A stretch of 64,000 nucleotides of DNA from Thermodesulfobacteriota bacterium (GTDB lineage Bacteria; Desulfobacterota; Desulfobacteria; Desulfobacterales; C00003060), in contig JAXHVD010000016.1 in NCBI GenBank assembly GCA_034189385.1, forward strand, positions 1 through 64,000, in the 5' to 3' direction. The notes below the pieces were generated by a model, which saw only the letters and a program-made list of their open reading frames with translations, made no database searches and was not told where the DNA came from. Of the stretch, positions 32,395 to 50,640 are shown one piece after another. Every line of letters starts with the position of its first letter. Position 1 is the stretch's first letter. The position numbers and the translations under genes are program-made.

Positions 32395-33045
32395 TCAGTG
32401 TTCCGCACTGACTACGTATTCAAGAAAGATGGGATAAAAGGCCCCAAGGAAGGCCATGCCGGTTCGCATTGCGACGACTGGTGGCACCTCCTCCCCGAGT
32501 GGTAAGGAAATACGCACGAAAGCGGTATCCTCACGGCCATGAAGCCATTTTGTCCAAAAGGCATAGAGCTTCTGGAAGAAAGTGCCCTGAAAGGTCTTGT
32601 CAAATGCCTGAAACCAATAAAGTAGAAGCTGCCTTTCCTTGCTGCGAGTGACAATAGCACTCACAAAATGAAGTTTATGGCCGCCCAAATCGGTGCTTAT
32701 GTTTTCCGTTTTTGATATAGTCCATCCTGCTCCGTGAAAACAGACTAGAGGTGAGTGAGGCGCTCCAACCTTTTCTGTACTAAGGTAGTACCCTACATAT
32801 AGAAAGACCCTGTCCTTTCCTCTAGAATAATACTGATTTACGTAGTCATGTACCTCCAAAGCCTTTAGGATTTTCGAGTGCAATGGAACTGGCTCTCCAC
32901 TTTTCCAACCCTCAATGTTTAGGCTATTGACTAAACTTGCTTTTTTGGCAACGGGGGTTGATGGGGGAGTCTGATAAATCAATAAACTCGTAATGGAAAA
33001 AACGATTACCAGAACGACTATTCGACGATGGTAGCTTTGTCCCAA
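32395..33045 (-). CDS. epsI: EpsI family exosortase-associated protein
   Basis: LYVGYY, HSPLVCF.GAGW, LLYWFQ and AFVRIS motifs. TTG start with GGAG RBS overlaps the exosortase 3' end. Confidence 0.88.
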   Translation of the reverse strand: MGQSYHRRIVVLVIVFSITSLLIYQTPPSTPVAKKASLVNSLNIEGWKSGEPVPLHSKILKALEVHDYVNQYYSRGKDRVFLYVGYYLSTEKVGAPHSPLVCFHGAGWTISKTENISTDLGGHKLHFVSAIVTRSKERQLLLYWFQAFDKTFQGTFFQKLYAFWTKWLHGREDTAFVRISLPLGEEVPPVVAMRTGMAFLGAFYPIFLEYVVSAEH

Positions 33046-33875: not shown

Positions 33876-34192
33876 GTTTGGATTGATGGTCAATAGGTTG
33901 ACTTAGTCATATCAGGAAATATTTCTCGTGGCGGCGCAAAGAAGGCGGAGGAACATCACGTTCTCCAGAGTATAGCTAAGACGAAAGCTTGTAGAGCCGG
34001 ACAGAGTCGCGGCTTGCTTGCTAAATGCGAAAAAGATGTGCCCCGGCGGAAAAAGGAGCGAAGGATCTGAAATTGATGCCGGGACGTTTCCACTTCCCCA
34101 AGGCAGGTGCCCTGAAAAGCTTGTAATGGGCGCCCCGAACAGTTGTGCAAGGCTCTCCTGATATCAATATGCTTGAGTTTTACAGTCACTGG

Positions 34193-35233: not shown

Positions 35234-35715
35234 GAATTAATCGGATGTTCATTGTGGGCTTTCGGGCTCACCATCAGGCTGCGGTGAGCGGCCCACGAAA
35301 GGGGACAAATCGCGGACAGTTTCATGCTGTTAAGCCGAGTTTTCAGGATTTAAATAAAAAGCCGAAAATGGGTCAAAAAACTCAATGAATTAGGTGAGAA
35401 ACGTTGTGCAAGGGTCTCGAAGCCAAAAGGCTTATTGTCTGTCCATTTTCGCGATATCTTAGCTGGCTTCAGTGATCAGTCCCACAAAAAAGGCTCCAAA
35501 GTGCCAAATCACGATTCTTACCCCTTTATTCAAAGCCCTCATCATAGACTACTTCTCATACAGCTCCGCCCCCTAAGTTACATGAAGGTGATGAATGCAA
35601 CCAGTTGAAGTTACACAACATGGGAGTGGCCAGCCTTGACAGCAGGTTGACTATCTCCCCGTAGAAGTTGGCCCAGATTTTAAAGGCAGAGCAACTAGGT
35701 ATTCGTGGGTGAGCA

Positions 35716-37113
35716 CTATCTGCTCCCCCTGCCCAAGAGCACTGTCTTAACAGTATGGAAAATGACCATCAAGTCCAGGACAAGAGACATGTTCTTAATA
35801 TAGTAAAGGTCATACTTCAGTTTCTCAAGAGCATCCTTTTCAGACGATCCATAGGGATACTTGATCTGGGCCCACCCTGTTACCCCCGGTTTGACAGTAA
35901 ATCTCTGGTTGTAGTAAGGAATGATGCTTTTGAGTCTGTCGGCGAAATAGGGACGTTCGGGCCTGGGCCCGACGAAGCTCATGTCTCCTGTGAGGACATT
36001 CCACAATTGAGGAAACTCGTCTATTCTGAGCCTTCTAATGATCCTGCCAACGCTAGTGATCCTCGGGTCGTTCTTTCTGGTCCATACGGGTCCGGTACCC
36101 TTTTCAGCATCGTGTCTCATAGAGCGAAACTTGTGGAGCGTAAATAGCTTTCCACTTTCGCCAACTCTTCTTTGGGAAAAGAGGACAGGACCTCGTGAAT
36201 CCAGTTTTATCGCCACAGCAACCAAAAGCATCAGGGGAAAGAAAACAACCAGCATGGCGGTAGACATTGCAAGGCCGATCAGTCTCTTTGTGGCCCTAGC
36301 CGTTTTTGACTTAACAAATCCGTTGGAGAGGATGAGCCAGGTTGGATTGATTCTTTCCACCAGAAGTTTCCCAGTGATCCTCTCGTAGAAGCTCTCTCCG
36401 TCGATGATGTTTATCCCCCGCACCTTGCAATTGAGAAGTTCCTTGTAGGGGAAAATGCCACGCTTTTCGTCTAAAGCTACAATAAGACTCTTGACATTCT
36501 CAGCCTCTGCCCAATCGCATATATGGCCAAAGCCATGCTTGACCGACATACCCTTGAAGGCATCATTTCCCACAGGAGTCTTGTCATGTGAGACCACCGA
36601 GCTGATATGATAACTCACATCGCCATTGCCATTCATTGCCCTGAGGATGTCTTTGGCCAACTCACCAGAACCCACCATAATAGCCCTTTCTGTAAGGAAA
36701 TTCTTCCGAATGAGAAAATAGTATAGCAGCCGCCACACAACCAGGAAAAGGAGCAGGAAAAGAAGGCTCCCAAAGAAGATCCATTTTCCAATAATCATCT
36801 CTGGCAAGAAAAAATAAAGGATAGCCAGGGCTATGGACAGGATGCCAATAGACTGAACCAGTCTGGATGCCAGGTCAAGAGTGGTGTCAGTGGTCTTAAA
36901 TTCATAGAGATCATTAAAATACAAGCTGAGCTGGGCGATGACAGAGATAAGCAGTACCTTAGGCCAGATCATTTCCAGCATGAAGGCGAGGCCCACATCT
37001 TGTCCCATAATGAGATAGGATGCCACGCAGACTGCCAGGAAGATCAAGATGCCTTCCCCGACAACAAAGATCATCTTCCTGGGAGAAAAGTGCTGTCTAA
37101 ATAGCTGAATCAT
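35716..37113 (-). CDS. Priming undecaprenyl-phosphate sugar transferase (PEP-CTERM-system type, WcaJ-like)
   Basis: KFRSM, DPRIT, RIDEFPQLWNV..GDMSFVGPRPE, KPGVTGWAQ and DLYYIKN motifs. Confidence 0.95.
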   Translation of the reverse strand: MIQLFRQHFSPRKMIFVVGEGILIFLAVCVASYLIMGQDVGLAFMLEMIWPKVLLISVIAQLSLYFNDLYEFKTTDTTLDLASRLVQSIGILSIALAILYFFLPEMIIGKWIFFGSLLFLLLFLVVWRLLYYFLIRKNFLTERAIMVGSGELAKDILRAMNGNGDVSYHISSVVSHDKTPVGNDAFKGMSVKHGFGHICDWAEAENVKSLIVALDEKRGIFPYKELLNCKVRGINIIDGESFYERITGKLLVERINPTWLILSNGFVKSKTARATKRLIGLAMSTAMLVVFFPLMLLVAVAIKLDSRGPVLFSQRRVGESGKLFTLHKFRSMRHDAEKGTGPVWTRKNDPRITSVGRIIRRLRIDEFPQLWNVLTGDMSFVGPRPERPYFADRLKSIIPYYNQRFTVKPGVTGWAQIKYPYGSSEKDALEKLKYDLYYIKNMSLVLDLMVIFHTVKTVLLGRGSR

Positions 37114-37206
37114 TGGTTCCTATACGAAGCGCAAGTGGTAACGCGACAACGCCCTCCATCGAAAGCGCCCCGATCTTAAGCGTTGGAGTCTTCTGTCTTG
37201 CTATTT

Positions 37207-38046
37207 CTAGTACTCTCCGTAGTATTTATGATAAGCCTTGTAACTCTGGGCGTAACCGTTAAAAACGATGCCACGGATCTTTTCCCTGCCCAAGGGTTCA
37301 ATGCCTTTTTGAATTGTTTCCCTGGGAGCCCTCTCGGCCATGACTACATAGACAATGCCGTCTACATGGTTTGATAGCACACCGACCTCTGCCGTGAGGT
37401 GGCTTGGAGCTGTGTCAAGAATAACATATGTTTCCTCATGGCGTCCCTTTACGTTCTCGGGAAATTTTTCCTCATGGCGTCCCTTTACGTCCTCGAGAAA
37501 TTCTTTCATCTTGGTTGATGAGAGCAACTCCGGCCCGTCTGGGCCTGGTCTTCCCGCAGTCAAGAGGGAGAGTTTATCCATTTTTGTGCCAACGAGTAAT
37601 TCAGACAAGGTCTTCTTCGCAGTTAAATACTCATAGAGGCCTTCTATATTAGCATAGCCCAACATATCGTGTAAGCTGGGACTGCGAAAGTCACAGTCCA
37701 CTAGTAAGACATGCTCGTTGACCCCCATGGCAATGCTTGCAGCCAGGTTGGCAGCCACAAATGTTTTCCCTTCGCCAGGAAAGGCACTGGTTATCATAAT
37801 GGTTCTGGGCTTGCTGCCATCCTTTGGATAGAGGATCTGAGACCGCAAGACCTTAAAATTCTCAGCATCTATGGAGTCCGGGGCTGAAACAGCTATCAGT
37901 TTAGGGCTGAAGCCATTTTGAACGGGAAACCCCTGGGCACGGGGTGCCTGGGGGACTTGATGGGTGACGTCTTGAGGGCCAAGGCGATTTGGCCTTATGA
38001 GCCTGTCCTGCTTGTGCTTCTCCAATGCATCAAATACCTTGCCCAT
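37207..38046 (-). CDS. Polysaccharide biosynthesis tyrosine autokinase (CpsD/CapB-like)
   Basis: PGEGKT Walker A, LVDCD, ILDTAP, and C-terminal Tyr cluster YAQSYKAYHKYYGEY. Confidence 0.92.
   Translation of the reverse strand: MGKVFDALEKHKQDRLIRPNRLGPQDVTHQVPQAPRAQGFPVQNGFSPKLIAVSAPDSIDAENFKVLRSQILYPKDGSKPRTIMITSAFPGEGKTFVAANLAASIAMGVNEHVLLVDCDFRSPSLHDMLGYANIEGLYEYLTAKKTLSELLVGTKMDKLSLLTAGRPGPDGPELLSSTKMKEFLEDVKGRHEEKFPENVKGRHEETYVILDTAPSHLTAEVGVLSNHVDGIVYVVMAERAPRETIQKGIEPLGREKIRGIVFNGYAQSYKAYHKYYGEY
37431..37502. repeat. 36-bp in-frame tandem duplication
   Basis: 37431-37466 versus 37467-37502, two mismatches; encodes FLEDVKGRHEEK / FPENVKGRHEET. Confidence 0.9.
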
Positions 38047-38115
38047 TAGATTCCCTCACCAACTGCCACAGCTCACACTCTGCCATGGTTCCATTATATA
38101 TGATCCAACGCCCTC

Positions 38116-39489
38116 TCATTTGTTCGACACGAGAGGGGGGAAAAGTATCTCCTGTCCTACCTCAATATAGTCCACGTCTTTGATATGAGGATTGGACTCC
38201 CAGACAAGTTCCAGAATGTTTCCCTCAGCCTGGCCATAGACCGCTGTTGCTAACTCTGAAAAGGTATCGCCCTTCTTCACAACCAGTATTGTCTTTGAGA
38301 TATTGTCGTGATCCTGTAAAGAGCCTTGCCATGGGGCTGGCAGACTTGATAGCAGGGCCATGGTTTTTTCTTTTTCAAACACCTGGCTTAAGGGCACTGA
38401 ACCGACCCTTGGCTCATCTTGTACTCTTGGAATGGTCCTGTCCTGGATAGGTGCTTGATCTTGGCCAGCCTTGGTGGGTGTTGGCATGTAACCCACTGGT
38501 ACGATGCGGGTCAATCGCTGCGCGACCTTTCTACCATGGGGGCTCATAAATAAGGCCAGAAGTGCCATGATGATGAGAAAGATGGCCGCCCACCTCAAGG
38601 GGTGCCTCACTTTGGTCGGCGCTGCCTTTCTTGTCTCCAGCTGCTTTAGTTCTTCTAACGGGCTCGGTGAAGACGAAACGTGGGGTCGCAACTCGTCATA
38701 GCATTCTTTTACCATTGAGGGCGTGATCTTCCTTTGTCCCCTTGAATAGGCAAGTAGCAGGACGTTGTCTGCGAGGATATTGATCATCCTAGGATAGCCT
38801 TCGGAATACTGATGAATGGCCCTTACCACGCTATTGGGGAGGATTGCCTGTGGGTTTTTTGCTCCTGCTATCTGCAGGGCGGTGGCAACATATTCCTGAG
38901 TGCCTTTTAGGTCCAAGGGATTCATATGATAACGGGTGCCAATTCTTTGTAGAAGGGCCCTGCACCTCGGCTGATTTAATTTTTCGTTCAACTCTGGTTG
39001 GCCGACGAGGAAGATATTGACCAGTTTCTTTTCGGCCGTTCCCATATTGGAAAGGAGCCGAACCTCCTCCAAAAGTTCGAGAGAGACTTCCTGGGCCTCG
39101 TCAATGATCAGTACAAAACTTTCCTGGTGCTGCAGCGTCTCCTTTAGGAAGTGTTCAAAGGCTATGAGGAACTCTGCCTTGGATTTGACGTTAAACGTTT
39201 TGTCAAATGCGGTGAGGGCAAGATAGCGCATGAACTCCTCGGCGGAGAGGAGCGGGTTCGGGAGGTAGACGTACTTCACACCCTTTTCAAGATTGGCAAG
39301 GAGGGCGTGGACCATGGTACTCTTGCCCGTCCCTGTCTCCCCTGTGAGAAGGACAAACCCTTTTCGCTCAACAACCCCGTATGTCAGCACTGCCAAGGCT
39401 TCTTTATGGACCTCACCCAAATAGAGAAAGCGGGGTGACGGGGTAAGGTGGAAAGGTTGTTCCTTCAGATTGAAAAAATCAGCATACAA
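38116..39489 (-). CDS. ExeA-like AAA ATPase with TM helix and C-terminal LysM-like domain
   Basis: MY..FF.L...PF, GETGTGKS, IIDEAQ, LVGQPEL and G.PR.IN motifs; C-terminal VVKKGDTFSELA..VYG...NP.I....IEVGQEI.FP. Confidence 0.88.
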   Translation of the reverse strand: MYADFFNLKEQPFHLTPSPRFLYLGEVHKEALAVLTYGVVERKGFVLLTGETGTGKSTMVHALLANLEKGVKYVYLPNPLLSAEEFMRYLALTAFDKTFNVKSKAEFLIAFEHFLKETLQHQESFVLIIDEAQEVSLELLEEVRLLSNMGTAEKKLVNIFLVGQPELNEKLNQPRCRALLQRIGTRYHMNPLDLKGTQEYVATALQIAGAKNPQAILPNSVVRAIHQYSEGYPRMINILADNVLLLAYSRGQRKITPSMVKECYDELRPHVSSSPSPLEELKQLETRKAAPTKVRHPLRWAAIFLIIMALLALFMSPHGRKVAQRLTRIVPVGYMPTPTKAGQDQAPIQDRTIPRVQDEPRVGSVPLSQVFEKEKTMALLSSLPAPWQGSLQDHDNISKTILVVKKGDTFSELATAVYGQAEGNILELVWESNPHIKDVDYIEVGQEILFPPLVSNK

Positions 39490-39572
39490 GGAAAGAGCCC
39501 CTCAACAACTCTCAAAAACGCGGTCAATCCCCGTGCCTTGGACGGCTCATGGGGATATCTCGACCACTATTC

Positions 39573-39588
39573 AGCCACAGTTGTGCCA
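39573..39588 (-). promoter_or_regulatory. Candidate internal sigma-54 promoter
   Basis: Minus strand reads TGGCACAACTGTGGCT (GG/GC spacing correct, one mismatch before -12), in the intergenic gap ahead of the ATPase gene. Confidence 0.4.
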
Positions 39589-39650
39589 ATACTGCATCGC
39601 CTATAATTCATTGATGTCATTATTAATCCTGCCTAGGTCTCCTTACCTTC

Positions 39651-41219
39651 TCATATTGCCGCAAGAATCCCTTTTGCGTAACTTAGGGTAGCATCCACTC
39701 CTTTATAAGCAAGAATGATGCCAATAGCTGAGAGGACAAATCCCAGAGTTACAGTGACGAGGGCCAGCCCCCTTTTTAGTCTCTTTGTCCTTATTTCCTT
39801 TTGAGTGTATCTAATGGGTATGCTCACCAAAACAGGCAATTGGAGGTCTTTTTCCACCTCCTCTGGGGTCTTATAAGAGGTGTCCATGGTCTCCCTTAAA
39901 AAGGCCAATCCACCACCTAGGGCAAGGCCACAAGCCAAAGTCAATAGAAGGATTCTACGAAAATCAGGTTCTACCGGTCGCGTCGGAGTCTTGGCAGGAT
40001 CAATTACTCTAAACTGCTCTCCTTTCTGTTTCTTCTCCATGCTCACAGCGATCTGAGCTTCTAATTTCCTGTTCAAGAGAGAATTGTACAGCTCCCTTAG
40101 GTTTCCATAGTCACGGTTTAGGCTCAGCAACTCCTGTTCCCTCTTGGGTGTGTCTTCCACCTTCTTCTGGTACCACTGTGTCTGAGACTGAACCTCCTTG
40201 ATCTCGGCCTTCAGAGTGTCAATTTCAAATGAAAGATCATGCAGTTGACGTTTCAAGCCGTGATCCACTGGGGTCAGAGAAGTCTCCGGTTTCAATGAAC
40301 CGGTTTCGTTTTCCGACCTTTGTCCTTCCAGTCTTGCGATCGTTTGCGTCAAGCGGATGACATCAGGATGGTTTTTTGTGTATTTTGCCTCAAGGGAAGC
40401 AAGCTCATTTCTGAGTGATGTAATATTCGTTGGTGTGCCCCCCTCGGAGGTCGCGCCAATCAGAGGTTCTGCTCGAAGCTTTTCTTGTTCGGCAATCTGT
40501 GTCTGCACTAGTATTTTTCTGTTCTCTGCATCTCTCAGACGATCGTGGAGTTGATCCAGTTGAGCCTGAAGCCTTTCCAGAATACTTAAATTGGTCTGAA
40601 GCTGTTCGGGCAACCCACCTATATAGCGCTGTCGATACTGCTTTAATTCTTCTTCCTTTTCCAAGAGGCGCCTTTCCACGGATTCCAGTTCGTCAGATAT
40701 AAAGGCCGATGTCCCTATGGCCTGCGATTCCCTGATCTTCAGGTTCTCTGAGATGAAATTGGAGGCTAGGGCATTGGTCACCTCCATTACTTTCTTTGGG
40801 TCCTTACCCCTAAAAGCAATGGTGAAGGCATCGGTTCCCCTGCCTCTCCCCCCCCCGTAGTTCACGTCAATCTTGATCATGTTTCTAAGCAACGCTACCT
40901 TGTCGTCCGTGAACATCTGTTGGTCAGATGAGCTGTATAGATTGTGTTCTTTGATGATCTTCTCCAGGTTGGTTCGACTGGTGACCTGCTGCGAAATGGT
41001 ACTGAGTCTATCTTCAACAGTGGCAGATACAATGGTCCGGACAAAATCCTCTGGGACCTTCTGGGGTTGGACCAAGATCAGGGTCTCTGCCTCATAGATC
41101 TTTGGAGTCTTTAGGCAGTAGGCTAGCCCCCCAAGAAGGGTCAACAGGAAGGGGATAATGGTCCACCATATCCTACGCTTGGCCATGTTTATATATCTTG
41201 TAAGTTCAAAAGGTTCCAT
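39651..41219 (-). CDS. Polysaccharide co-polymerase / chain-length determinant (GumC/Wzc N-part)
   Basis: Two TMs flanking long coiled coils; YTKNHPDV and FRVIDPA..P..P motifs. Confidence 0.92.
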   Translation of the reverse strand: MEPFELTRYINMAKRRIWWTIIPFLLTLLGGLAYCLKTPKIYEAETLILVQPQKVPEDFVRTIVSATVEDRLSTISQQVTSRTNLEKIIKEHNLYSSSDQQMFTDDKVALLRNMIKIDVNYGGGRGRGTDAFTIAFRGKDPKKVMEVTNALASNFISENLKIRESQAIGTSAFISDELESVERRLLEKEEELKQYRQRYIGGLPEQLQTNLSILERLQAQLDQLHDRLRDAENRKILVQTQIAEQEKLRAEPLIGATSEGGTPTNITSLRNELASLEAKYTKNHPDVIRLTQTIARLEGQRSENETGSLKPETSLTPVDHGLKRQLHDLSFEIDTLKAEIKEVQSQTQWYQKKVEDTPKREQELLSLNRDYGNLRELYNSLLNRKLEAQIAVSMEKKQKGEQFRVIDPAKTPTRPVEPDFRRILLLTLACGLALGGGLAFLRETMDTSYKTPEEVEKDLQLPVLVSIPIRYTQKEIRTKRLKRGLALVTVTLGFVLSAIGIILAYKGVDATLSYAKGILAAI

Positions 41220-41234
41220 ACGTAAATCCTGGCT

Positions 41235-42578
41235 CTACCATTGCCAGAGTTTGCTCGCTGTCAGGTTCAGCATGAACCGATGGTCCCTGTAGTCTTCAGT
41301 CACAAGATCATCTTCTCTATCGGCATAAGTGTAATCCAAAGAGAGGGAAAACCACCGGAAAAAGGTCCATGTGAGGCCACAGTTTCTTCGCCACGTTTTC
41401 CAATCTCGGTTTTCCCCGTCGTCGTAGTCTCCTTTATCAAGGCGATAAGACCAGCCACCATAAGCGGCTAAGGGTGACATAATCTGGTATTCCAGCTGCG
41501 CCTGTACGCTCCAATAGCGACTAAATCCCCTTCTTTCTGCTTCCAGATATGCCTCGTCCCAACCGCCTTTCCCCCCGATGAAGAAGCTTCCGCGTTCAAA
41601 TCTCTTTCCAACTGAGGCGTTGTAAGAGTAACCAGTCTGGTCATCAGATGCGTCGTTTTCCCGGACAAAATAACCACCGCCTACAGAAACGGATAGATCT
41701 TGGGCAAAGGACTGTTCAAGTCCGATTGATCCATGGTGAACCGTATAGTCTTCAGTTTCTCCCTCAAAATGGCGGTGCGTGAAACGGTAGCCTGCAAAAC
41801 CGGTGGCGTGCTGGGTAAACCGGTGGATATAGCGCATTCCTGCGCCATGGCCTGTATAGTCATCTCCGGCCTCTTCGTCATCGCCCCGCCAAAAGATGGC
41901 ATCAGTGTATTCGTATTCAAGCTCAACGCCATTCTTCAGATTGATCCAATACGTCACCGTGGAGAAAGGAATACGTATTTTTCCGTCATCCACAGTAGGG
42001 TCTTCGTTTTTGAGCAAGAAATGTCTAAAGCCTACGGTGAAGAGATCTTCCGATCCAAAAAGATACCCCAAACTGGCACTAAAGGCATTTCTTTGGTACG
42101 TGTCCCTGGTTTCCCTTACGTTTTCTACCTCTTCAGTCTCTTCCATGGGTTCTTCGGACTTGATGTACGTATCGCTGAGATTGAAGGTCAGGCATTGTGT
42201 GAGGCCCTGGCCAAAGCTAGCGGTCCCAGAGTGTCTTACTGTATTGTTCTGGTCCTCCCTATTATACCAGACAAAGGTGGGAGCATACTGTAGTTCCAGA
42301 TGCGTTTTCTCCGACATTAAGTGAAGGCTCAAACTAGGGGAGACCGTGGTGATGTAATCCGATTGCTCGTCCGTGGCATCGAGATAAATGTTATCATCAT
42401 ATATCTCACTCACGAACAGACTAGGTGTTAACTCAAAAAGGCATTGGGCAAAAGAGGGTTGGGGGAGAAAAAAGAGCCAGACCAGCCAAATAATCAAAAG
42501 TTTGTTTCTGAGCGATCTTTGCATCACTAAGCCGGTTGAAACCGAACTGATAAAACGTATTGATAAGGAAGTTGTCAT
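41235..42578 (-). CDS. Outer-membrane beta-barrel protein, polysaccharide-export associated
   Basis: Signal peptide, YDDNI motif, alternating aromatic beta-strands and terminal W; start may be 42524. Confidence 0.82.
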   Translation of the reverse strand: MTTSLSIRFISSVSTGLVMQRSLRNKLLIIWLVWLFFLPQPSFAQCLFELTPSLFVSEIYDDNIYLDATDEQSDYITTVSPSLSLHLMSEKTHLELQYAPTFVWYNREDQNNTVRHSGTASFGQGLTQCLTFNLSDTYIKSEEPMEETEEVENVRETRDTYQRNAFSASLGYLFGSEDLFTVGFRHFLLKNEDPTVDDGKIRIPFSTVTYWINLKNGVELEYEYTDAIFWRGDDEEAGDDYTGHGAGMRYIHRFTQHATGFAGYRFTHRHFEGETEDYTVHHGSIGLEQSFAQDLSVSVGGGYFVRENDASDDQTGYSYNASVGKRFERGSFFIGGKGGWDEAYLEAERRGFSRYWSVQAQLEYQIMSPLAAYGGWSYRLDKGDYDDGENRDWKTWRRNCGLTWTFFRWFSLSLDYTYADREDDLVTEDYRDHRFMLNLTASKLWQW

Positions 42579-42669
42579 GGATCAGCTTTTTTCAACACAA
42601 TTACGAAAACGCGAAAGCAGTAATGGTTAAAGGCTGAAGGACAGAAGTGGCTTCTTCCTCAGCCCCTTA

Positions 42670-43251
42670 TCATGGCACCACAATGGTGTCGTTTGGCTGC
42701 AGAATAATGTTCTCTTCCACTTTCTTGCCACCAATGAAACCCTCGTAATCAAAACGGAGCTGCATCTCCCTCTTGTCGGTCCTCCGAATGATGAGGATGT
42801 TTTTTGTGTCTGCCCATTCTGCAAAGCCGCCTGCCGTGGAAATGGCCTGGAGGACGGTCATGTCCGCTGCCAACGGGTAGGCGCCAGGTCGATTCAGCTT
42901 GCCTACGGTATAGATGCGGCGGCTGTGACTCTCCCTGAGAATGACGGTTACCTCCGGTGCCGTGACGTAGGCCCTCAGTTTCTCGGTTATCGTTTCTTTG
43001 AGGGCTGTTACGGTTTGACCCTGGGCCATGATTTCTCCAATCAATGGAAACGTGATTCTCCCATCAGACATGACAGTAACATCCTGGGTCAGTTCTGGTT
43101 CTTTCCAGACATAGATATTCAGGATATCGCTGGGGCCCACGACATAAGACGGTGATTCTGCTCTTGCCAGGCAATGGTCTGTCCAACACGAAAGGCTGAG
43201 AATACAAATGCCCAGAGACAAGAGAACAATCCACCTAGACATCCTTCTCAT
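42670..43251 (-). CDS. Polysaccharide export (OPX/Wza-like) protein, short form
   Basis: Y.VGPSD.L.I.VWKEPEL, DGRITFPLIG, SLBB-like domain ending LQPNDTIVVP; ATG 43251 with GGAGGT RBS. Confidence 0.92.
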   Translation of the reverse strand: MRRMSRWIVLLSLGICILSLSCWTDHCLARAESPSYVVGPSDILNIYVWKEPELTQDVTVMSDGRITFPLIGEIMAQGQTVTALKETITEKLRAYVTAPEVTVILRESHSRRIYTVGKLNRPGAYPLAADMTVLQAISTAGGFAEWADTKNILIIRRTDKREMQLRFDYEGFIGGKKVEENIILQPNDTIVVP

Positions 43252-43316: not shown

Positions 43317-44357
43317 TCACGGTCGTTTCACCAGGGGGCTGCGATATTTGTTGTTCCTGATTCCCACGTTTGCCATCTTGTAGAACAGCGCCTTGTAACT
43401 GATCTTGAGGATCTTGGCTGCCTCTTTTTTGTTCCACCCCGTGAGATTGAGTGCATGCATGATGGCCTCCCTTTCAACATGTCTTGTGGCCTCAACCTTT
43501 AGGTCCTTTAGCGATTTCGGCGGGTTTCGTTCTATGGTGTCCTTGGCCGGCAGCCCAGGCCCATCAGAGGACTCCGTAACGGCCTCGGCACGCATGTCGT
43601 CCGCGGCCATGTTGCTCAGAAGCTCAGAGCTAACCTCTTCCTGGTTGTAGCCCACCATAAGCATGGCGATGGTGTTACTCAGTTCTCTCACGTTTCCAGG
43701 CCAGGCATAAGAGTCAAAGAGCTTTTTCAAATCTCCATCCAGGCGGAAGGGCTCTATCATCTCAAGGTCGCGACGGTGCTTTTCAACAAAGTATTTGGTC
43801 AACAAAGGAATGTCTCCTGTTCTATCTCGCAAAGGAGGGATGTCTATTTTGATGATATTCAAACGATAATAGAGGTCCACTCTGAAGAAGCCGTCCTTCA
43901 TGTCTTTTTCCAGATCATGATTGGTCGCTGCGATGACCCAGGAATTGACCTGGACATCTCTCGTACCACCAAGTCTGGAAAACCTTCCGCTCTGCAGTAC
44001 CTCCAGGAGCTTGGCCTGGAGTACCACGGGCATGTCTCCGATCTCGTCCAAAAAGATGACGCCGTCTGATGCTAGTTCGAATTTTCCTGGTTTCAATTGG
44101 TCCGCCCCGGTGAAGGCACCCTTTTCGTAACCGAAAAGTTCGCTCTCAAGGAGCGTCATTGGAAGGGCAGGGCAGTTGACTTTAATAAACCTCTTATCGC
44201 GGCGGTTGGAGGCACGATGAAGTAACCTTGCTACGACCTCCTTGCCGGTACCCGTCTCTCCCATGATGAGAACGTTGAAGGCAGTATCCGAGATCATGGT
44301 GATGAGCTCCCGGATTTTTTGGATAGACGGATGATTGCCGATTAGGGCGTACTCCAT
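43317..44357 (-). CDS. Sigma-54 enhancer-binding protein lacking an N-terminal sensory domain
   Basis: Begins MEYALIG directly at the AAA+ domain; GETGTGKE, GAFTGA, FLDEI, DLYYRL, WPGNVREL and Fis-type HTH. Confidence 0.92.
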   Translation of the reverse strand: MEYALIGNHPSIQKIRELITMISDTAFNVLIMGETGTGKEVVARLLHRASNRRDKRFIKVNCPALPMTLLESELFGYEKGAFTGADQLKPGKFELASDGVIFLDEIGDMPVVLQAKLLEVLQSGRFSRLGGTRDVQVNSWVIAATNHDLEKDMKDGFFRVDLYYRLNIIKIDIPPLRDRTGDIPLLTKYFVEKHRRDLEMIEPFRLDGDLKKLFDSYAWPGNVRELSNTIAMLMVGYNQEEVSSELLSNMAADDMRAEAVTESSDGPGLPAKDTIERNPPKSLKDLKVEATRHVEREAIMHALNLTGWNKKEAAKILKISYKALFYKMANVGIRNNKYRSPLVKRP

Positions 44358-44361
44358 AATG

Positions 44362-44396
44362 TGGCAAATTTTTACATAGGTTGGCGGGTTTGTCAA
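44362..44396 (-). promoter_or_regulatory. Sigma-70-like promoter overlapped by operator box TATGTAAAAATTTGCCA
   Basis: TTGACA at 44396-44391 with an imperfect -10 at ~44374-44368. The box (44378-44362) matches boxes upstream of two sigma-54 promoters. Confidence 0.6.
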
Positions 44397-44836
44397 TATT
44401 AAAGAAGGATTAGAGGTGGAAAGGGAAGTAACACCCTGTTGGAGGGCAAGGGGCCGCCCTATTCGGGCCGTCGCCAAAATGCCTTTTCGCTTTTCTGAAA
44501 CGTCTTTTGATCCGCCTTCGGAGGACTCCAGGGATTAGCGCTGACGGTTGCGCCTGGTCGGTTGAAGAAAAGCACTGCCTGTACAAGATGCGCCCTTTCG
44601 GCTCAACCATTTGCAATTGCTGATCTTTCACTTTGCCGAAATTCGCGAGTCAAAAATGTTTCAATTCATCGCTTCAAAGGAATTTTTGCTTCGGCAATAG
44701 CCCACATTCATGGGACCCTGTGTAGGCTCGGCTAGCGGTGAATGGACACTGGCGGGGATCTACAAAAAGCAAAGGCAGGGGAGACGCATCATCAATGCAC
44801 CTGCCCTGCCTTTGCTTAACCAGAGTGGAAAGAAGG

Positions 44837-45031
44837 TCAAAGTTGAAAGGCGGATCTTCGATCAAAGCTGCTTCTTCGCTCCATGCCGCTTCTTCGGTCT
44901 AGCCCGTTTCGGCGGTCGTCGCTGGCCCTTCTTTCAGGGATGTGGCCTGTGTACGAAAAGCGCCTCCGATCCACGCCCGAACGTCTCCCCCCGTTGTCAC
45001 TCAATTTAACTGCCACGCTAGCCATTCCCAC
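44837..45031 (-). CDS. Small Arg-rich [DE]RRxxx-repeat protein (62-64 aa)
   Basis: DNGGRRSGVDRRRFSYTGHIPERRASDDRRNGLDRRSGMERRSSFDRRS: 6-residue periodicity kept at protein level despite divergent codons. Confidence 0.7.
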   Translation of the reverse strand: MGMASVAVKLSDNGGRRSGVDRRRFSYTGHIPERRASDDRRNGLDRRSGMERRSSFDRRSAFQL

Positions 45032-45343
45032 TTTCGGCCGTCCTTTTCTGAGACTGCGTTATGATTCTCCTTTATTCCTTAATTACCGTATGGCAGGTCA
45101 CGGCGACCTGTTTTGAATAAATCAACTGACGATATCTTCGAATTCCTCCATGTCAGGGTCAATGCCAATGTCTGCCCTTTTCTCACAAACCTGATAAAGC
45201 AATAATAGACTTGTGGACATAGACTTGTGGAGATTTAGACTGTGATGAGTGTTTGGTGGCTAATCCCCGGTCCACCTATCCAACAGACAACAGTTCGATC
45301 TCTTGGCCCCCTTCACTCTTGTTACACTCAGGCGTGCATCAGT

Positions 45344-45925
45344 CTATTTCATTAAGGTTTTCCGAAGCTTCTTCCTGCCCAAAAGGCCGGCCAGACCGAT
45401 CAGGCCTGTGCCCATAAGCAGCATGGAGGCTGGTTCTGGGACGGGGCTCTCTGGGCACTGGGTTGCCTCGACGACGAGCTTTGCCGATTCAAAGTAAAAA
45501 TTTCCTCCCTTGGCTTCCAACATAGCATTAACAATACCATCGTCGCTGAGAGTCAATTCCACGGCGGGTGAGAGCGCGAAGGGTAAGCCAGAGGTTGGGT
45601 ACTCAAGTCTCCAGCCGCCGAATATGTCTGTCCCTACTGTTAGCTTCACCCATTCATGTGGAAAATCGGGGTTGTCTGGAGTATGATCACTAAGAGTTAC
45701 GAAGACTTTAGCGGTACCAGGTACCACATTTTGACAGTCTGGGTTGAATCCGTCATCAGTAAGATCAAATGTCCAACTATACTGATCCACGCTTCCGTCC
45801 GATAGATCAGCGTCCATAAAGACATCGGCGGGATCCCAGATGTCTTCGATCGGAATAGCACTGGCTATGCCGACGGCAGAAAAAACCATGGCTATAGTGC
45901 ATAAAAACACTAAAAACTTGTTCAT
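45344..45925 (-). CDS. PEP-CTERM sorting-domain protein
   Basis: Signal peptide (ASA cleavage), acidic mature domain, C-terminal VPEPASMLLMGTGLIGLAGLLGRKKLRK; RBS AAGGAGG. Confidence 0.95.
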   Translation of the reverse strand: MNKFLVFLCTIAMVFSAVGIASAIPIEDIWDPADVFMDADLSDGSVDQYSWTFDLTDDGFNPDCQNVVPGTAKVFVTLSDHTPDNPDFPHEWVKLTVGTDIFGGWRLEYPTSGLPFALSPAVELTLSDDGIVNAMLEAKGGNFYFESAKLVVEATQCPESPVPEPASMLLMGTGLIGLAGLLGRKKLRKTLMK

Positions 45926-46105
45926 TGCAGTCCTCCTTCCCTGTCTCGGCCGATTAAGCAGTTAGTGCCTCAGTCCACTTCTCAGGCACCCGTACGTCTC
46001 TCGCCCCCCCTTTTGTTCGAGCGACGTGCCCAGTGGGAACTGTCGCTCTCTCGTGTTTCGGTATTCCCCCTTCGACTATTTGGACTAATGGTTTCAACAA
46101 CATTT

Positions 46106-46121
46106 TGCAATAAACATGCCG
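46106..46121 (-). promoter_or_regulatory. Sigma-54 promoter for the PEP-CTERM gene
   Basis: Minus strand reads CGGCATGTTTATTGCA, ~180 bp upstream of the ATG. Confidence 0.8.
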
Positions 46122-46246
46122 ACCGGCAAAGAGCCTAAAAGAACAGAGCAATTACAATATTAAATCAAGGAAATAAAAGAGTTAAGGCGTAAGTCTCAAT
46201 GAAGATCCACGAAAGGGCAAGGGCTCTCAAAAAGGGAGGATAGAGG

Positions 46247-46308
46247 TATGTATTTTATTGCCAACTATATGAGAAAAGTTATGCCAATATGTGGAAAAAG
46301 ATTATATA
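46247..46308. promoter_or_regulatory. Phased putative enhancer boxes
   Basis: TATGTATTTTATTGCCA (46247) and TGAGAAAAGTTATGCCA (46270), then TGTGGAA at the same 43-bp offset as in the 13567 array. Confidence 0.6.
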
Positions 46309-46414
46309 TGGATGTGGCGAACAATGGGAGGATCTGGAGCCCAAGTTGCGCAACGATCAGGAAATGGCGACAAAAGGCCTAAGACGAACGGACGGGGCGG
46401 GGAAAAAGGAGATG

Positions 46415-47821
46415 CTATGGTTTCAGATCAAATTCCTTGATACGGTTTAGGAGGGTCTTATAGCTCACCTGGAGCAATCGGGCAGCCTGTCTTCTGTTCC
46501 ACTGAGTCTCGCTGAGAGCGTTCAAAATCGCCTCCCGCTCTGCTTGGGAAACATAGGCCTTGGATATCTTCTTCAAGGAGAAATCATTATCTCTAAAAAG
46601 CCTTGAAAGCTTGTCGTCACGCCAATCAGAACCTTGAGACTCAACCTCAGATAAAGAGCCACTCTCTACGCTGTGGACTCCCATATGTAGGTTTAGATCT
46701 TTAAAAGCAAAATCCCAACTTCTAAGGACAATGGCCCGACGGATCACATTCTCAAGCTCTCTCACATTGCCGGGCCATTCGTAGGCCAAGAAAAGCTCAG
46801 CGATCTCATCGGGTATGTCCATGACCCCTTTTCTGAGCTCAAAGCAATACTTGTTCATAAAGTAGTGGGTCAAGAAAGGGATATCTTCTTTTCTCGTTCT
46901 AAGGGAGGGGACATCCATGGCCACCACCTTCAGGCGGTAGAACAGATCCTTTCTAAAAGACCCTTCCAGCACCTTCTGCTGGAGATCTGAATTCGTAGCA
47001 GCCAACACGCGGATATCCATGGCTTCGTCTTCTGTGCCGCCAAGGGGTGAAAAGGCTTCCCCTTCAAAGATCTGAAGCAGTTTAACCTGCAAAGACAAGG
47101 AAAGATCGCCGATTTCGTCAATAAACAGGGTTCCTCCCGCTGCCAGCTGAAGACGCCCGGGCTTGTCTTTATGGGCCCCCGTAAAAGCCCCTCTCTGAAA
47201 ACCGAAGACCTCACTCTCTAGCAAGTCGTCAGGGAGAGCCCCGCAATTCACCTTCACCAGTGCGCCTTTTCGCCGATAGGAATGATAGTGGATAGAACGG
47301 GCTATCAGCTCCTTGCCAGTACCGGTCTCCCCCGTGATCAATACGGTGACGTCCTTGTGGGCCACCTTTCGAATTTTTTCCCTGATGTTCATCAGTTGAG
47401 GGCTTTGTCCAACAATGACCACGGGGCTGTCGTCTAAAGGGCCTCGGGCAGCTCGCTGTTTCCATGCCTTGTGTATGGCCCTTGATATCTCGTCAAGGTC
47501 CGGATCTGGGCTCAGGTGATGGATTGTACCGCTAGGGGAATGATCAGATCCGTTCAAAAGCAACGCCTCTTCACAGGAGGTCAAAATCGGCATTACAGGG
47601 TCAATCAATCCCAAATTGTGAATGTTCTTCAGGCAGGTTTGTGTTTCTACAGAAGGCCCGATAATGGCCAAATCAGGACTCAAAGAGGCCAGTTGCTCGG
47701 CAGACCTATCGGGGGGCGCGGTAGAACAAAGCTTGAATCCCAGGCCTCTGACCTTTTCCTGCAAGATTTGGGAACGGGAAGGATCTGACTCAACCACAAG
47801 AATGTTCGGATTGGCTTTCAT
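46415..47821 (-). CDS. Sigma-54 enhancer-binding protein with degenerate (pseudo-)receiver domain
   Basis: REC-like N-terminus ILVVESD...DLAIIG (Gly at the phospho-Asp position, no KP); GETGTGKE, GAFTGA, FIDEI, WPGNVREL and HTH. Confidence 0.9.
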   Translation of the reverse strand: MKANPNILVVESDPSRSQILQEKVRGLGFKLCSTAPPDRSAEQLASLSPDLAIIGPSVETQTCLKNIHNLGLIDPVMPILTSCEEALLLNGSDHSPSGTIHHLSPDPDLDEISRAIHKAWKQRAARGPLDDSPVVIVGQSPQLMNIREKIRKVAHKDVTVLITGETGTGKELIARSIHYHSYRRKGALVKVNCGALPDDLLESEVFGFQRGAFTGAHKDKPGRLQLAAGGTLFIDEIGDLSLSLQVKLLQIFEGEAFSPLGGTEDEAMDIRVLAATNSDLQQKVLEGSFRKDLFYRLKVVAMDVPSLRTRKEDIPFLTHYFMNKYCFELRKGVMDIPDEIAELFLAYEWPGNVRELENVIRRAIVLRSWDFAFKDLNLHMGVHSVESGSLSEVESQGSDWRDDKLSRLFRDNDFSLKKISKAYVSQAEREAILNALSETQWNRRQAARLLQVSYKTLLNRIKEFDLKP

Positions 47822-47925
47822 AAGTCTCTCCTGTGGGCCTTGATATTGGCAAAGTCTGTCCTTATCTTTCCGTTCAACGATTCAAGAGTGGACCTCACTG
47901 CCCTGAAGAAACATGGCAAGCGCCA

Positions 47926-48312
47926 CTACTTTTTCTCTTGCTGCATGAGGAGCCTAGCTATATGATCCTTCAGAACCGACATCTTGAAAGGCTTGGCCAG
48001 CACCAGGTCTGCCTTCTTTTCCGTGGCCGCCATTTCGGGCTCCTTGCCATAACCCGTGATGGCGATCACGGGGATATGTGGGGTTTTTTTCTTAATCGCC
48101 GTGATCATTCCCACTCCACTCACGTAGGGCATGACAATGTCTGTGACCACTAGGTCATAACCTCCTGATTCTAGCATCTTTAACCCTTCCATACCATCGG
48201 AAGCTGCCAAGACCTCGTAGCCCAGGCGTCTCAGATGCTTGGCGATTACTGAGAGGATATCAGAGTCGTCTTCTATTACTAAAATCGTCCTTTTTTGAGA
48301 CGTCTTATTCAT
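47926..48312 (-). CDS. Single-domain response regulator
   Basis: ILVIEDD, LVVTDIVMP, AITG and AKP are all intact. Confidence 0.93.
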   Translation of the reverse strand: MNKTSQKRTILVIEDDSDILSVIAKHLRRLGYEVLAASDGMEGLKMLESGGYDLVVTDIVMPYVSGVGMITAIKKKTPHIPVIAITGYGKEPEMAATEKKADLVLAKPFKMSVLKDHIARLLMQQEKK

Positions 48313-48327
48313 TGTCAGATTCTTGTC

Positions 48328-50640
48328 TCAGGATGTGCCTGAGGCCTGAATTTGTTTCAGGATACTGCGTGCCTCATCTGCGCCGTCGAAGTCCTGGGCT
48401 ATATCAAGTGCCTTTTGTAGGAACTCTAGGGATCTTTCGGGCTCGTTGTTCTTATAAAAGGCAAGGCCTAAATGGTAGTTGATCACTGGATTGTCAGGCT
48501 CTAGTTCCAAGCTGTCCTGAAATTCCGCAATAGCGCTCAAGTAGCTTCCCTTTAAATAGTATATCCAACCCAGGGTGTCCATGGTGGAGCTGCTCTCAGG
48601 CATATTCTCCTTGGCGATTTGTGCCAATCCCAAGGCTTCATCAATGTTGCCTCCCCGTTGTGCCAGATTCCAGGCTAGGTTGTTGGCTGCAGGCGCAAAA
48701 TCGTCTTTTAGCTCCAATGCCTTTCTGTAATAGGATTCGGCCTTTTCGGCATTGCCCCGTTGATCATAGATAGTGCCCAGGGCCATGTAACCTGCCACGT
48801 AGTTCGGATTCTTATCCAAAACCTCCTCAAATTGAGAAATGGCCTCTGTCAACCTGTCCTCTTTCACGTAGATCTTGGCCAAGGCCACATAGGGAGCCAG
48901 AATGTTTTCTTGCGTCTCAATGGCCTTTTCAAAGTGTTGTTGGGCTTTAGTCAAATCCTCCTGGGACCAAAAAATCGTCCCTTCCAGGTATTCGATCCAT
49001 GCCAAGTTAGAAGGAGACTCTGAGGCCTTTCCCTTGTATTCCTCACATAGTTGAAGAGCTTCGTCATATCTTTTGTCTTGCAGTTGCACACGCACCATGT
49101 GGGCGAGGGCATCGGTCCGGTGAGGATCCAACTCCAGCACCTTTTTCAAGGATTTCAGCGCCTCGTGGCGTCGATTTGTGACACTATAAAGAAACCCAAG
49201 ACGCAGATGAGCAGATACAGAGTCGGGGTCAAGATCAAGGGCCTTCTTGAAAAGGGCCTCCGCTTGCTTTGTGTCTTTTTCCAGGGTGTTCAGATTTCCT
49301 TTCAGAATCAGGGCCGGAACATGAGAGGGAGCCTGGCCGAGTACTGTCTCTATTTGCTGATCAGCCAGGTTCAATCTCCTGTTACGAAGATATATCTCTG
49401 CTAACACGAGCCTGGCATCTAACTGACGAGGGCCCATCTCTATGGCCTTCACCAGGTCGTGTTCAGCGAGCTTTCGTTTCCCTTTTGCCATGAGGCACAA
49501 GGCCTTGTAATAGTAGGCTCTGGCATTATCGGGGTTTTCTCTCACCACCAGGTCAAGTCGCTTAAGGGCATTGTCAACATCTTCTCTCGCCAGATAAAGC
49601 CTTCCCTTTAAGAAACTTGCTTCCACGTGCCCCTTGTCTTTTTCTAAGACTTGATCGACGAGTTCTTCAGCCGCGCCCGTCTTTTGGAAACGGAGATACA
49701 ACTTTGCCATGGCCAAGAGGATCTCCGGATCCCCCTTCTTTATCTTCAAAGCCTTCTCCATGGTCTCTAGGGCTTTGTCAAAGGATTGCCTTCGGGCATA
49801 ATGCCGAGCCAGCTCCATCAGGGGCGCAATGTCCTCCTGGGATGCGGCATTGACTGCCTCCAAGTACGTCTTCTCCGACTCCTCCCATCTTTTTTGGGTC
49901 TCGTAGAAGAATGCGAGTATAATGAGATCTTGTTCCTTGGAGGCAGAGGCATCCACCATCTTTTTCAGCTCTGACTCGGCGTTATCCCATTCCCCCTTCG
50001 TGCCGTAGATGCGAGAGAGCTCCACGCGAGGCTTGCGTGCAGATGGCTCCACGGACAGGGCCATTAAATAGGCCTTCTCCGCCCCTTCAATATCGCCGGT
50101 GAGGAGCAGCAGGCGGGCGAGCGATAGGTTCGCCTGAAAATGCTTGGGGTCCATGGAAGTGGCCTGCTGCAATGTCTTTATGGCAGCGTCCACATGGTTT
50201 TCCATGACCTCTACATCTGATAGCAGTAACAGGGCCTCTATGTTTTGGGGTGATTCTTGTAAGACAATCTCGGCCTTTTCCCTGGCATCGTCAGGCTGTT
50301 TCCCTAGCAGAAAGATTTGTCCCATCTTCAGCTGGGCCTTGAGGTCTTCTGGGTTGATGGATACAGCACGGGAAAATGATTTAAAGGCCTCTTGGCCTTG
50401 TTTCAACTTGAGATAGGTCTCGCCCAGCTCGTAGCAAGCAGCACTGTTTTCAGGGTGCAGCTGAAGCACGTTCTTGAATTCAATGACCGCCTTTTTGAGT
50501 TCATTCCTTTCAACATATTGTTTTGCTCTTTCAAGGTGTTTCGCTGCCCGCTCTTCCTTGCTGGCGCACCCGATGAGAACAAACAAAAAAAGGACTGGCA
50601 CCATCCAGAGTTGTCTAGTCTTCCATGTATTCGTTCTCAT
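48328..50640 (-). CDS. TPR-repeat lipoprotein (PrsT-like, PEP-CTERM system)
   Basis: Lipobox VLIGC, many TPRs, C-terminal ANNLAW...DTLGWIYY; ATG 50640 with AAGGAG RBS. Confidence 0.88.
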   Translation of the reverse strand: MRTNTWKTRQLWMVPVLFLFVLIGCASKEERAAKHLERAKQYVERNELKKAVIEFKNVLQLHPENSAACYELGETYLKLKQGQEAFKSFSRAVSINPEDLKAQLKMGQIFLLGKQPDDAREKAEIVLQESPQNIEALLLLSDVEVMENHVDAAIKTLQQATSMDPKHFQANLSLARLLLLTGDIEGAEKAYLMALSVEPSARKPRVELSRIYGTKGEWDNAESELKKMVDASASKEQDLIILAFFYETQKRWEESEKTYLEAVNAASQEDIAPLMELARHYARRQSFDKALETMEKALKIKKGDPEILLAMAKLYLRFQKTGAAEELVDQVLEKDKGHVEASFLKGRLYLAREDVDNALKRLDLVVRENPDNARAYYYKALCLMAKGKRKLAEHDLVKAIEMGPRQLDARLVLAEIYLRNRRLNLADQQIETVLGQAPSHVPALILKGNLNTLEKDTKQAEALFKKALDLDPDSVSAHLRLGFLYSVTNRRHEALKSLKKVLELDPHRTDALAHMVRVQLQDKRYDEALQLCEEYKGKASESPSNLAWIEYLEGTIFWSQEDLTKAQQHFEKAIETQENILAPYVALAKIYVKEDRLTEAISQFEEVLDKNPNYVAGYMALGTIYDQRGNAEKAESYYRKALELKDDFAPAANNLAWNLAQRGGNIDEALGLAQIAKENMPESSSTMDTLGWIYYLKGSYLSAIAEFQDSLELEPDNPVINYHLGLAFYKNNEPERSLEFLQKALDIAQDFDGADEARSILKQIQASGTS

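Follow-up and report, generated by a model that had tools for sequence, protein, structure and literature searches.

We analysed a 64,000-nucleotide stretch of DNA from a Thermodesulfobacteriota bacterium (the window; positions 1 to 64,000 of contig JAXHVD010000016.1), which carries a regulatory module next to an exopolysaccharide (EPS) export cluster. All the genes lie on the minus strand; PrsT comes first, then the lone receiver, the pseudo-receiver activator, the PEP-CTERM gene, and the input-less activator, and wza and the rest of the EPS cluster follow. The module is a conserved set distinct from PrsK/PrsR, and it is unnamed in the literature searched. We give about an even chance to the reading that the input-less protein of 346 aa is likely the main sigma-54 activator of surface genes, switched in trans by the receiver, with the pseudo-receiver paralogue as a probable optional tuner. 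The short activator would bind tandem TGTG-AA-N4-TT-CACA sites and open the sigma-54 promoters of PEP-CTERM and other surface genes; the stand-alone receiver would likely switch it in trans, as a split NtrC-like switch; and the paralogue would probably join it at the same sites. Haft et al. (PMC1569441) stated that further PEP-CTERM regulators and DNA motifs were still to be found, and the module supplies such a regulator, with a named activator, a predicted operator, target promoters, and a candidate input. It is undescribed in the full-text literature searched, a scope outside which lie most subscription papers and the motif supplements of PMC4641369 and PMC3333781, and those supplements could hold a similar motif.

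The core of the module is the short activator gene at 43317-44357 (minus strand). In its product the Pfam Sigma54_activat domain begins at residue 5, and Walker A (GETGTGKE), GAFTGA, Walker B DE, both arginine fingers, sensor II, and a helix-turn-helix (HTH) with the recognition helix SYKALF are all present. An earlier note on this DNA had described this bacterial enhancer-binding protein (bEBP) as having no input domain, and this stands: because the best 120 of 1629 homologues, which carry generic names only, are all 339-358 aa long, the missing domain is a family trait and not a start-codon error. A longer TTG start at 44477, which would add an N-terminal domain, was rejected on the homologue lengths and the layout in relatives. 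The catalytic motifs are all intact in 73/73 family rows, and a Trp stands ahead of the sensor-I motif in 70/73. With AAA+ and HTH intact and no N-terminal regulatory domain, the protein has the architecture of a group 4 bEBP. In the tree, a single clade contains both window activators and leaves out the genome's 28 other bEBPs (support 99) and the PrsR rows (support 100); the short forms make up a starred clade.

In a profile search, the short activator was found in 83 of 251 sampled genomes (about a third) of this order, which comprises sediment sulfate reducers; scoring covered the top 8 candidates of each genome, so some copies may have been missed. The paralogue, from the same clade, is present in part of them; the gene pair on which the earlier note built its model is conserved in relatives. 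The names of homologues, together with the title of one record, indicate Desulfobacterales and Desulfatiglandales. One hundred regions, selected for high score and long contigs, were fetched, and 88 contained a short-clade protein; these are the 88 loci counted below. The gene itself is preceded by a sigma-70-like promoter with an operator-like palindrome copy (44361..44396, minus strand; promoter scan 10/12), with TTGACA (44391-44396) at −39 and the motif-like 18-mer (44361-44378) at −21 from the ATG. The palindrome copy ends 3 bp ahead of the ATG, and there is no Shine-Dalgarno sequence. This layout, common to 5/6 of the closest relatives, suggests a leaderless, autoregulated transcript of the sigma-70 type.

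Expectation-maximisation on 26 sigma-54 promoters from the relatives' loci gave the palindrome TGTGaAA-w4-TTtCACA. The training promoters lie before PEP-CTERM, microprotein, partner, wzz, and wza genes and exclude the own genome, although two of them, L122 and L040, are orthologues of the window promoters. Among 39 intergenic sigma-54-like sites of the own genome, the top five by this matrix (scores 18-23) are the PEP-CTERM promoters C64, window 46122, and C34, together with C10:85840 and window 13495; as background, 0.3% of 3000 random intergenic stretches reach a score of 18. The two window promoters, at 46106-46122 and 13479-13495, had been named in the earlier note, are present in the sequence, and rank 2nd and 5th. 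The first, TCGGCATGTTTATTGCA (minus strand), belongs to the gene for a PEP-CTERM protein of 193 aa (45344..45925, minus strand; PF07589 31.3 bits, above the cut-off), and tandem predicted activator sites at 46247-46264 and 46270-46287 (46247..46287, no strand assigned) lie 142 and 165 bp upstream of its −24 element. The second target promoter (13479..13628, minus strand) precedes the gene for a 1933-aa Fn3-repeat secreted protein, and the matrix predicts activator sites at 13567-13584 and 13611-13628 (minus strand). Across the genome, a sigma-54 promoter is found by our own pattern ahead of 3/6 PEP-CTERM genes. The short activator would suffice at such promoters, because genomes without the partner or PrsR have the same ones; the near-complete genome G237 has the short activator and a motif-bearing PEP promoter (17.9), and neither partner nor PrsR was found there. 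We regard it as quite probable that the short protein reads the motif. Three observations weigh against this: the motif is AT-rich and its sole control was random intergenic stretches rather than shuffled composition; of 7 further PEP promoters, drawn from four other activator-positive genomes, just 1 reached 14 (median 12.0); and the PEP promoter of G363, itself a training promoter, carries a PrsR box instead.

The C10:85840 promoter has the same operator spacing as the 13479 promoter. It precedes the gene for an 802-aa secreted repeat protein (G000:C10:83129-85537, minus strand), with operator sites at −88 and −132. No PEP-CTERM tail was seen in the 1933-aa protein (7520-13321, minus strand), which has Fn3-like and lectin-like repeats and whose gene lies behind the sigma-54 promoter with its pair of predicted operator sites. 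A further good sigma-54 site at 13996-14012 (minus strand) has weak operator matches (5.9 bits) and no convincing open reading frame (ORF) before the 13479 promoter; it could be a small-RNA promoter or a second promoter. Operator-like sites upstream of lone receiver genes (15/46) were counted without a control and were not used as evidence.

The stand-alone receiver (47926..48312, minus strand; 128 aa, PF00072 85.6 bits) belongs to a module-specific family. D58, T86, and K107-P108 are present, as expected of the intact receiver that the earlier note had described, and are invariant in 48/48 lone-receiver rows. No kinase ORF was found in the window, again as noted earlier, the nearest on the contig being at 65798. 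The description of the circuit as kinase-less by design is not supported, however: because the receiver active site is invariant and a kinase adjoins it in most close relatives, the lack is local. A window-type paralogue occurs in eight other genomes, and in six of these a hybrid kinase of ~810 aa lies beside receiver and paralogue. In L122, which otherwise has the window's gene order, this kinase is FHA-GAF-HisKA-HATPase-receiver. Overall, a kinase lies within 4 kb in 15/88 short-activator loci, and the own genome has 59 kinase-like ORFs by our own profile. Partial kinase matches of 32-33% in G363 and G011 were not shown to be orthologues of the FHA-GAF kinase.

Input-less bEBPs are controlled in trans (PMC7175178 Table 1; PMC4641369). 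A family receiver lies directly upstream of the short activator in 50/88 loci (81 had room); the adjacency spans many families and gene contexts, and the lone receiver keeps a family-specific surface. The predicted complex of receiver and short activator scored 0.51 vs 0.00 for the best control, with runs agreeing in at least 92% of contacts and a partner pLDDT of at least 80. This docking mark is reached by 116/157 solved and 2/215 mismatched pairs, and the pairs scoring 0.60 or less there are 18 solved ones and both mismatches. From the conserved adjacency, the invariant active site, and the weak predicted docking support, the receiver is, if weakly, the best candidate controller of the short activator. 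Protein contact with the lone receiver, which the earlier note had offered as one of two possible controls, is thus the best current guess. We put at a little under an even chance the fuller proposal that the receiver serves the short activator as a separated input domain and receives its phosphate from a soluble hybrid kinase, which is encoded beside it in most of the lineage and would have to come from elsewhere in this genome. If the receiver acts in trans, bEBP control would gain a mode that lies between that of group 1, with its own receiver, and that of group 4, with an inhibitor protein. The module resembles PspF-PspA and HrpS-HrpV (PMC7175178 Table 1; PMC3105312) in having an AAA+/HTH-only activator that needs partner control, but its candidate partner is a phosphorylatable receiver domain and not an inhibitor of the PspA/HrpV type; the passages of PMC7175178 and PMC3105312 consulted contain no pairing of a group 4 bEBP with a receiver-type partner.

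Several findings count against this assignment. In the window, the receiver stands ahead of the paralogue and not of the short activator. Two of the eight genomes with a window-type paralogue, G363 and G002, lack the adjoining kinase, and a search of the own genome did not recover the N-terminal half of the FHA-GAF kinase typical of the lineage (best match 29%, GAF part only). The docking score falls in a range that is more often wrong than right, and it may reflect likeness to the solved receiver-AAA+ structures of NtrC1 and NtrC4. As for surface genes as the target, EPS or PEP-CTERM markers occur in no more than 38/88 short-activator loci. The kinase pair that lies beside the short activator in other families has best matches of just 35-41% in the own genome.

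These same loci bear on an unlikely alternative, in which the short activator reads the motif without receiver control. It would be active by default, like PspF, and limited by its own expression or by a partner such as the microprotein described below, with or without c-di-GMP (cyclic di-GMP), while the receiver served a parallel phosphorelay and shared only the operon. The autoregulation-like promoter conserved at the short gene fits such behaviour, and 35/88 loci have no family receiver within the fetched stretch. The microprotein also tracks the activator, being present in 19/20 activator-positive genomes (6 of which contributed to its profile) vs 2/20 others, and it lies within 2.5 kb of the short activator in 35/88 loci (69 had room on both sides). 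The two microprotein-positive exceptions have no activator by a larger profile either. Opposed to this, the receiver gene immediately precedes that of the activator in 50 loci from many families and contexts, the receiver keeps its family-specific surface, and docking has weak predicted support. Moreover, the microprotein mostly lies behind its own sigma-54 promoter with the palindrome (7 cases), which marks it as a target.

The paralogue (46415..47821, minus strand; 468 aa) has an intact AAA+ domain and HTH (SYKTLL) in the window. Both activators around the PEP-CTERM gene thus have the intact GAFTGA, Walker, and HTH motifs reported in the earlier note, and their recognition helices, SYKALF and SYKTLL, are near-identical, as it had remarked. 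The N-terminus gives no Pfam receiver match at E<=0.001, whereas its 125 aa match the lone-receiver profile at 97.8%. It is predicted to fold as a five-strand receiver-like domain (pLDDT mostly 80-90), for which the top Foldseek matches are NtrC4, NtrC1, NtrX, and FleQ. Strand 3 does not end in an Asp, and the KP is missing. The pseudo-receiver proposed earlier is therefore upheld; the Gly assigned to the phospho-Asp position is G55 by register, and hhalign and phmmer put a 3-residue gap there instead.

The window paralogue is the sister of a crippled clade (support 84-86, unstarred). Half of the 20 aligned partners are intact, and the other 10 lack both GAFTGA and Walker B DE; all 10 of these keep both arginine fingers and the helix SYKS[ML]LNK. 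Five further crippled partners each lack GAFTGA or Walker B DE and keep both arginines. In total, both arginine fingers and the HTH are retained in 15/15 crippled partners, and GAFTGA is gone in 14/15. This graded decay, in which copies are intact, have lost GAFTGA, or have lost Walker B while the arginine fingers are always kept, is a natural series for studying what dead subunits do in an AAA+ ring. Because an arginine finger works on the subunit next to its own (PMC7175178), the fact that both are kept points to ring assembly; against this, they could serve homo-oligomers as well. In 9 relatives (6 crippled, 3 intact) the partner gene lies behind a sigma-54 promoter with the palindrome, with sites 100-250 bp upstream, and the partner is for this reason likely an induced modulator. 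In RedR1/RedR2 an active subunit is poisoned by an inactive one (PMC10084136), and in HrpR/HrpS neither GAFTGA motif can be spared (PMC3105312), so damping is favoured for the crippled forms, while FleT and VnfA3 are precedents for co-activation (PMC10084136 and PMC9542535 are among the papers cited for FleQ/FleT and VnfA1/VnfA3). We lean slightly towards the proposal that the circuit induces the paralogue, which then assembles with the short activator by way of its arginine fingers; copies without GAFTGA or Walker B would most likely damp, as a negative feedback, and the intact window copy could co-activate as well.

A partner lies near the short activator in 21/88 loci, 18 of them with EPS genes. 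For a genome-wide search with the pseudo-receiver profile, 22 activator-positive genomes were picked, mostly for having no partner near the activator. G195 (weak pseudo-receiver match) and L137 (outside the short clade) are not part of the counts given here. The partner was present in 5/22 (a clear gap of 106-141 vs <=50 bits), was not found in the near-complete genomes G641, G237, G489, G488, and G614, and was found in 0/14 genomes without a detected short activator. Dependence thus runs one way, since the partner can be missing where the activator is present and was never found without it.

The earlier note had suggested that the two activators possibly form a hetero-oligomer; in the strict form of this model they would be co-dependent, like HrpR/HrpS, and work only as a mixed ring. 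The single clade and the near-identical helices accord with this, as do the arginine fingers of the crippled partners, and in the window's own lineage 5/5 tested genomes with the short activator also hold the paralogue, even unlinked. In addition, EPS loci of Acidobacteria (at least 4) carry a pair from the same clade. Co-dependence is nonetheless quite improbable as a general rule: 17/22 activator-positive genomes show no partner, including the near-complete ones just named; the partner loses GAFTGA, whereas HrpR/HrpS need both; and the partner's own promoter needs an activator before the partner exists. It could still hold within the window's lineage, where a tighter link between activator and paralogue is possible.

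Slightly less probable again is that the paralogue works by itself as an atypical bEBP of the VpsR/NtrX kind, a sigma-70 activator or a repressor, and forms no mixed assemblies with the short protein. VpsR, too, has lost GAFTGA and Walker B DE and regulates a polysaccharide operon (PMC6158489); relatives' crippled partners head polysaccharide operons, and 18/21 nearby partners sit with EPS genes. Yet the operons headed by the paralogue have sigma-54 promoters with the upstream motif, unlike VpsR promoters; the window copy and 9 others are fully intact; and the paralogue is always found with the active short protein.

Under the preferred reading, with the paralogue as an optional tuner of the short activator, the pair can be compared with HrpR/HrpS, FleQ/FleT, VnfA1/VnfA3, and RedR1/RedR2 (PMC3105312, PMC10084136, PMC9542535). 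These too are paralogues with similar recognition helices; in the passages cited, one paralogue induces the other (FleQ-fleT, VnfA1-vnfA3) or an inactive form can poison the active one (RedR). The present partner differs in being optional, in having a pseudo-receiver, in keeping its HTH, while FleT is without one, and in ranging from intact to lacking GAFTGA and Walker B with the arginine fingers kept.

No PrsR or PrsK was found over the family cut-offs in the 90%-complete genome: the best PrsR score was 431.6 vs 502.6 (TIGR02915), and the best PrsK score was 122 bits, for the catalytic part only, vs at least 300 (TIGR02916). The window activators score 283.1 (short) and 295.7 (paralogue) on the PrsR model. 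From 17 promoters of ten PrsR-positive genomes, the same method that gave the new motif yielded the PrsR-type box TGTCGgatTTTTTTACA, which fits the 17-nt PEP-CTERM box ending in TTTACA of PMC1569441, as compared with its text and not its logo. None of these 17 promoters reaches 14 on the new matrix. Conversely, six own promoters score 1.8-9.4 on the PrsR matrix, vs a training median of 19.6, with 2.2 for the 46106 promoter and 9.4, the highest, for the 13479 promoter. The earlier note's proposal of an alternative to PrsK/PrsR is thus supported. It is very improbable that an unassembled PrsK/PrsR pair drives the promoters while the two activators do something else, because, even with 90% completeness, PrsT present, and PrsR in 11/83 activator-positive genomes, the box that is clear in PrsR-positive genomes is missing at all six own promoters tested.

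Mutual exclusion of the module and PrsK/PrsR was considered and rejected. PrsK occurs in 8/83 activator-positive vs 22/168 other genomes (p=0.54) and PrsR in 11/83 vs 22/168 (p=1.0), so the module is not exclusive. Among 95 exosortase-positive genomes, PrsK/PrsR is rarer with the activator (6/39 vs 21/56, p=0.022, kin not being independent). Of six features by which the locus could be placed in the PrsK/PrsR/PrsT system (Haft et al. 2006, PMC1569441; TIGR02916/02915/02917), two were found, PrsT and a sigma-54 promoter before PEP-CTERM genes, and four were lacking. The two systems share sigma-54 promoters before PEP-CTERM genes, an upstream activator motif, the PrsT lipoprotein, and a place in the exosortase/EPS locus. 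The present one differs in that neither activator is PrsR, both being in a separate clade with the helix SYK here vs SRPTL; no phosphorylatable receiver is fused to the activators (none on the short protein, no Asp and no KP on the paralogue); no membrane kinase, which in that system is usually a neighbour, was found; the receiver is a separate gene; the DNA motif is different; and the module is found outside EPS loci as well and can share a genome with PrsK/PrsR.

Between the short activator and the PEP-CTERM gene is a 62-codon ORF (44837-45025, minus strand), overlooked by the earlier note, which encodes an Arg-rich microprotein with the repeats DNGGRR..DRR.FSY..HIPERR..DRR. Across the copies of 28 relatives' loci, 10 of the 24 core positions vary little or not at all. 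The ORF is judged to be a protein-coding gene from its codon-position conservation (majority frequencies 0.77/0.88/0.49) and synonymous excess (4114 synonymous vs 2729 non-synonymous pairwise differences). It has 687 cluster representatives at E<=1e-10 and no match in Pfam, NCBIfam, or PDB; in the Atlas it falls in unnamed clusters at 0.89-0.90, with a recognition value under the trust mark. Three copies exist in the own genome, and a PEP-CTERM gene lies upstream of each. One wetland metatranscriptome contains 5% of the sequence words; its contigs cover this ORF (4 differences in 243 nt) and the 3′ end of the PEP-CTERM gene but do not count as evidence of expression. Two proteins with pentapeptide repeats and PilZ (P0007, P0011) end in two copies of the Arg-rich unit.

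The repeats recall the c-di-GMP motifs of the Arg-rich region of Caulobacter Cle proteins and of the CSP peptides, DRR-x11-(R/K)RxxD and [YF]xGP[DE][RK]R (PMC7382256, PMC5677366), with DRR followed by aromatics and P-E-R-R, and with DRR-x10-RRxxD in the window copy. In contrast to the Cle ARR and CSP peptides, the microprotein is a free-standing protein of 45-95 aa with six-residue DRR repeats, its spacing in the window is x10 and not x11, and the Gly of the second motif is missing in 23/23 copies. Single-residue loop deletions of CSP4 still bound at 0.3-1.9 μM (PMC7382256 Table 1). Arguing against c-di-GMP binding, the exact Cle motif occurs in 1/23 copies, and the own genome has only two full GGDEF domains, with two weak matches besides. 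We tentatively suggest that the circuit co-regulates the microprotein as one of its outputs, and that this protein may buffer c-di-GMP. The earlier note's other candidate control, c-di-GMP as a ligand of the activators, finds no counterpart of the FleQ type. The FleQ residues are LFR144S, R185-N186, and ExxxR334 (PMC9303241); at these positions the short activator has Y for R144, R-L, Y for E330, and K for R334, and the paralogue, read through the short-long alignment, has V, R-S, Y, and K, so that R144, N186, E330, and R334 are kept in neither. A bolder version of the preferred reading, which we hold to be doubtful, is a split-regulator two-component system in which the free receiver, given its phosphate by soluble hybrid kinases, docks on the input-less activator, and the circuit induces as brakes a c-di-GMP-sequestering microprotein and the pseudo-receiver paralogue, on its way to becoming a dead ring subunit with arginine fingers retained. 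If true, Desulfobacterota would possess a second master switch, widespread and with an operator of its own, for the genes of PEP-CTERM proteins and biofilm surfaces.

Upstream in the locus, the PrsT-like lipoprotein reported earlier is a TPR protein of 770 aa (48328..50640, minus strand) that is above the PrsT cut-off (TIGR02917, 423.7 vs 312.2) and has a lipobox at Cys25. It is the first gene of the PrsT-receiver-paralogue unit, which has a sigma-70-like promoter at 50808-50836. Two genes upstream of PrsT, a receiver-HD-GYP protein (52417-53442, plus strand) gives the sole HD-GYP motif match in the genome by our own pattern. The EPS export cluster (33018..43251, minus strand; NCBIfam/Pfam) begins 66 bp past the short activator and comprises wza, a beta-barrel protein, wzz, an ATPase, a tyrosine kinase, a priming transferase, a deacetylase, and the exosortase. 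A terminator scan did no better than chance (11 vs 9.6), so that transcripts from the PEP promoter may run on into wza. The earlier note had set the locus against canonical exosortase-A loci; the exosortase here (33018-33893, minus strand) passes the general model (187.6 vs 105.55), falls short of exosortase A (168.6 vs 208), and is also below the exosortase W, D, and V cut-offs. Within the EPS cluster, the genes at 15368-19462 (minus strand) encode a GDSL-like protein, a carbamoyltransferase, and a small SxtJ-family membrane protein, and they probably serve polysaccharide carbamoylation.

The short activator also appears in other settings. Genome G599 has five copies (L160, L166, L176, L184, L187). 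In L143 (9521-17877), receiver and short activator follow lptB-rpoN-hpf-ptsN-rapZ-gap-tpi, and the same pattern of gene sizes occurs in about a dozen other loci, the Pfam check having been made in L143. In L153 (534-15376), the short activator is divergent from a PilM/secretin/MshEN-ATPase cluster and is followed by the microprotein and two hybrid kinases, one with Hpt; this arrangement recurs in several families. A related-locus search with the short-activator alignment ran on generic bEBP patterns, and from at least 604 stretches one close orthologue and four Acidobacteria pairs were used. In the latter (at least four loci: L056, L059, L086, L091), there are two same-clade activators, one with and one without a receiver; L086 and L091 adjoin wza/wzz genes, and three of the four have an upstream kinase. 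The two members of these pairs group together (support 91), so the input domain may have been lost twice, in Desulfobacterota and in Acidobacteria. Finally, the window pair (43317-47821) is closer to copies in G339, G363, and G071, which belong to other orders of the phylum, than to the copies in most genomes of the same genus (L022-L030); those genomes carry another sub-lineage, in the order receiver-short-long-wza, and a transfer of the locus is possible.

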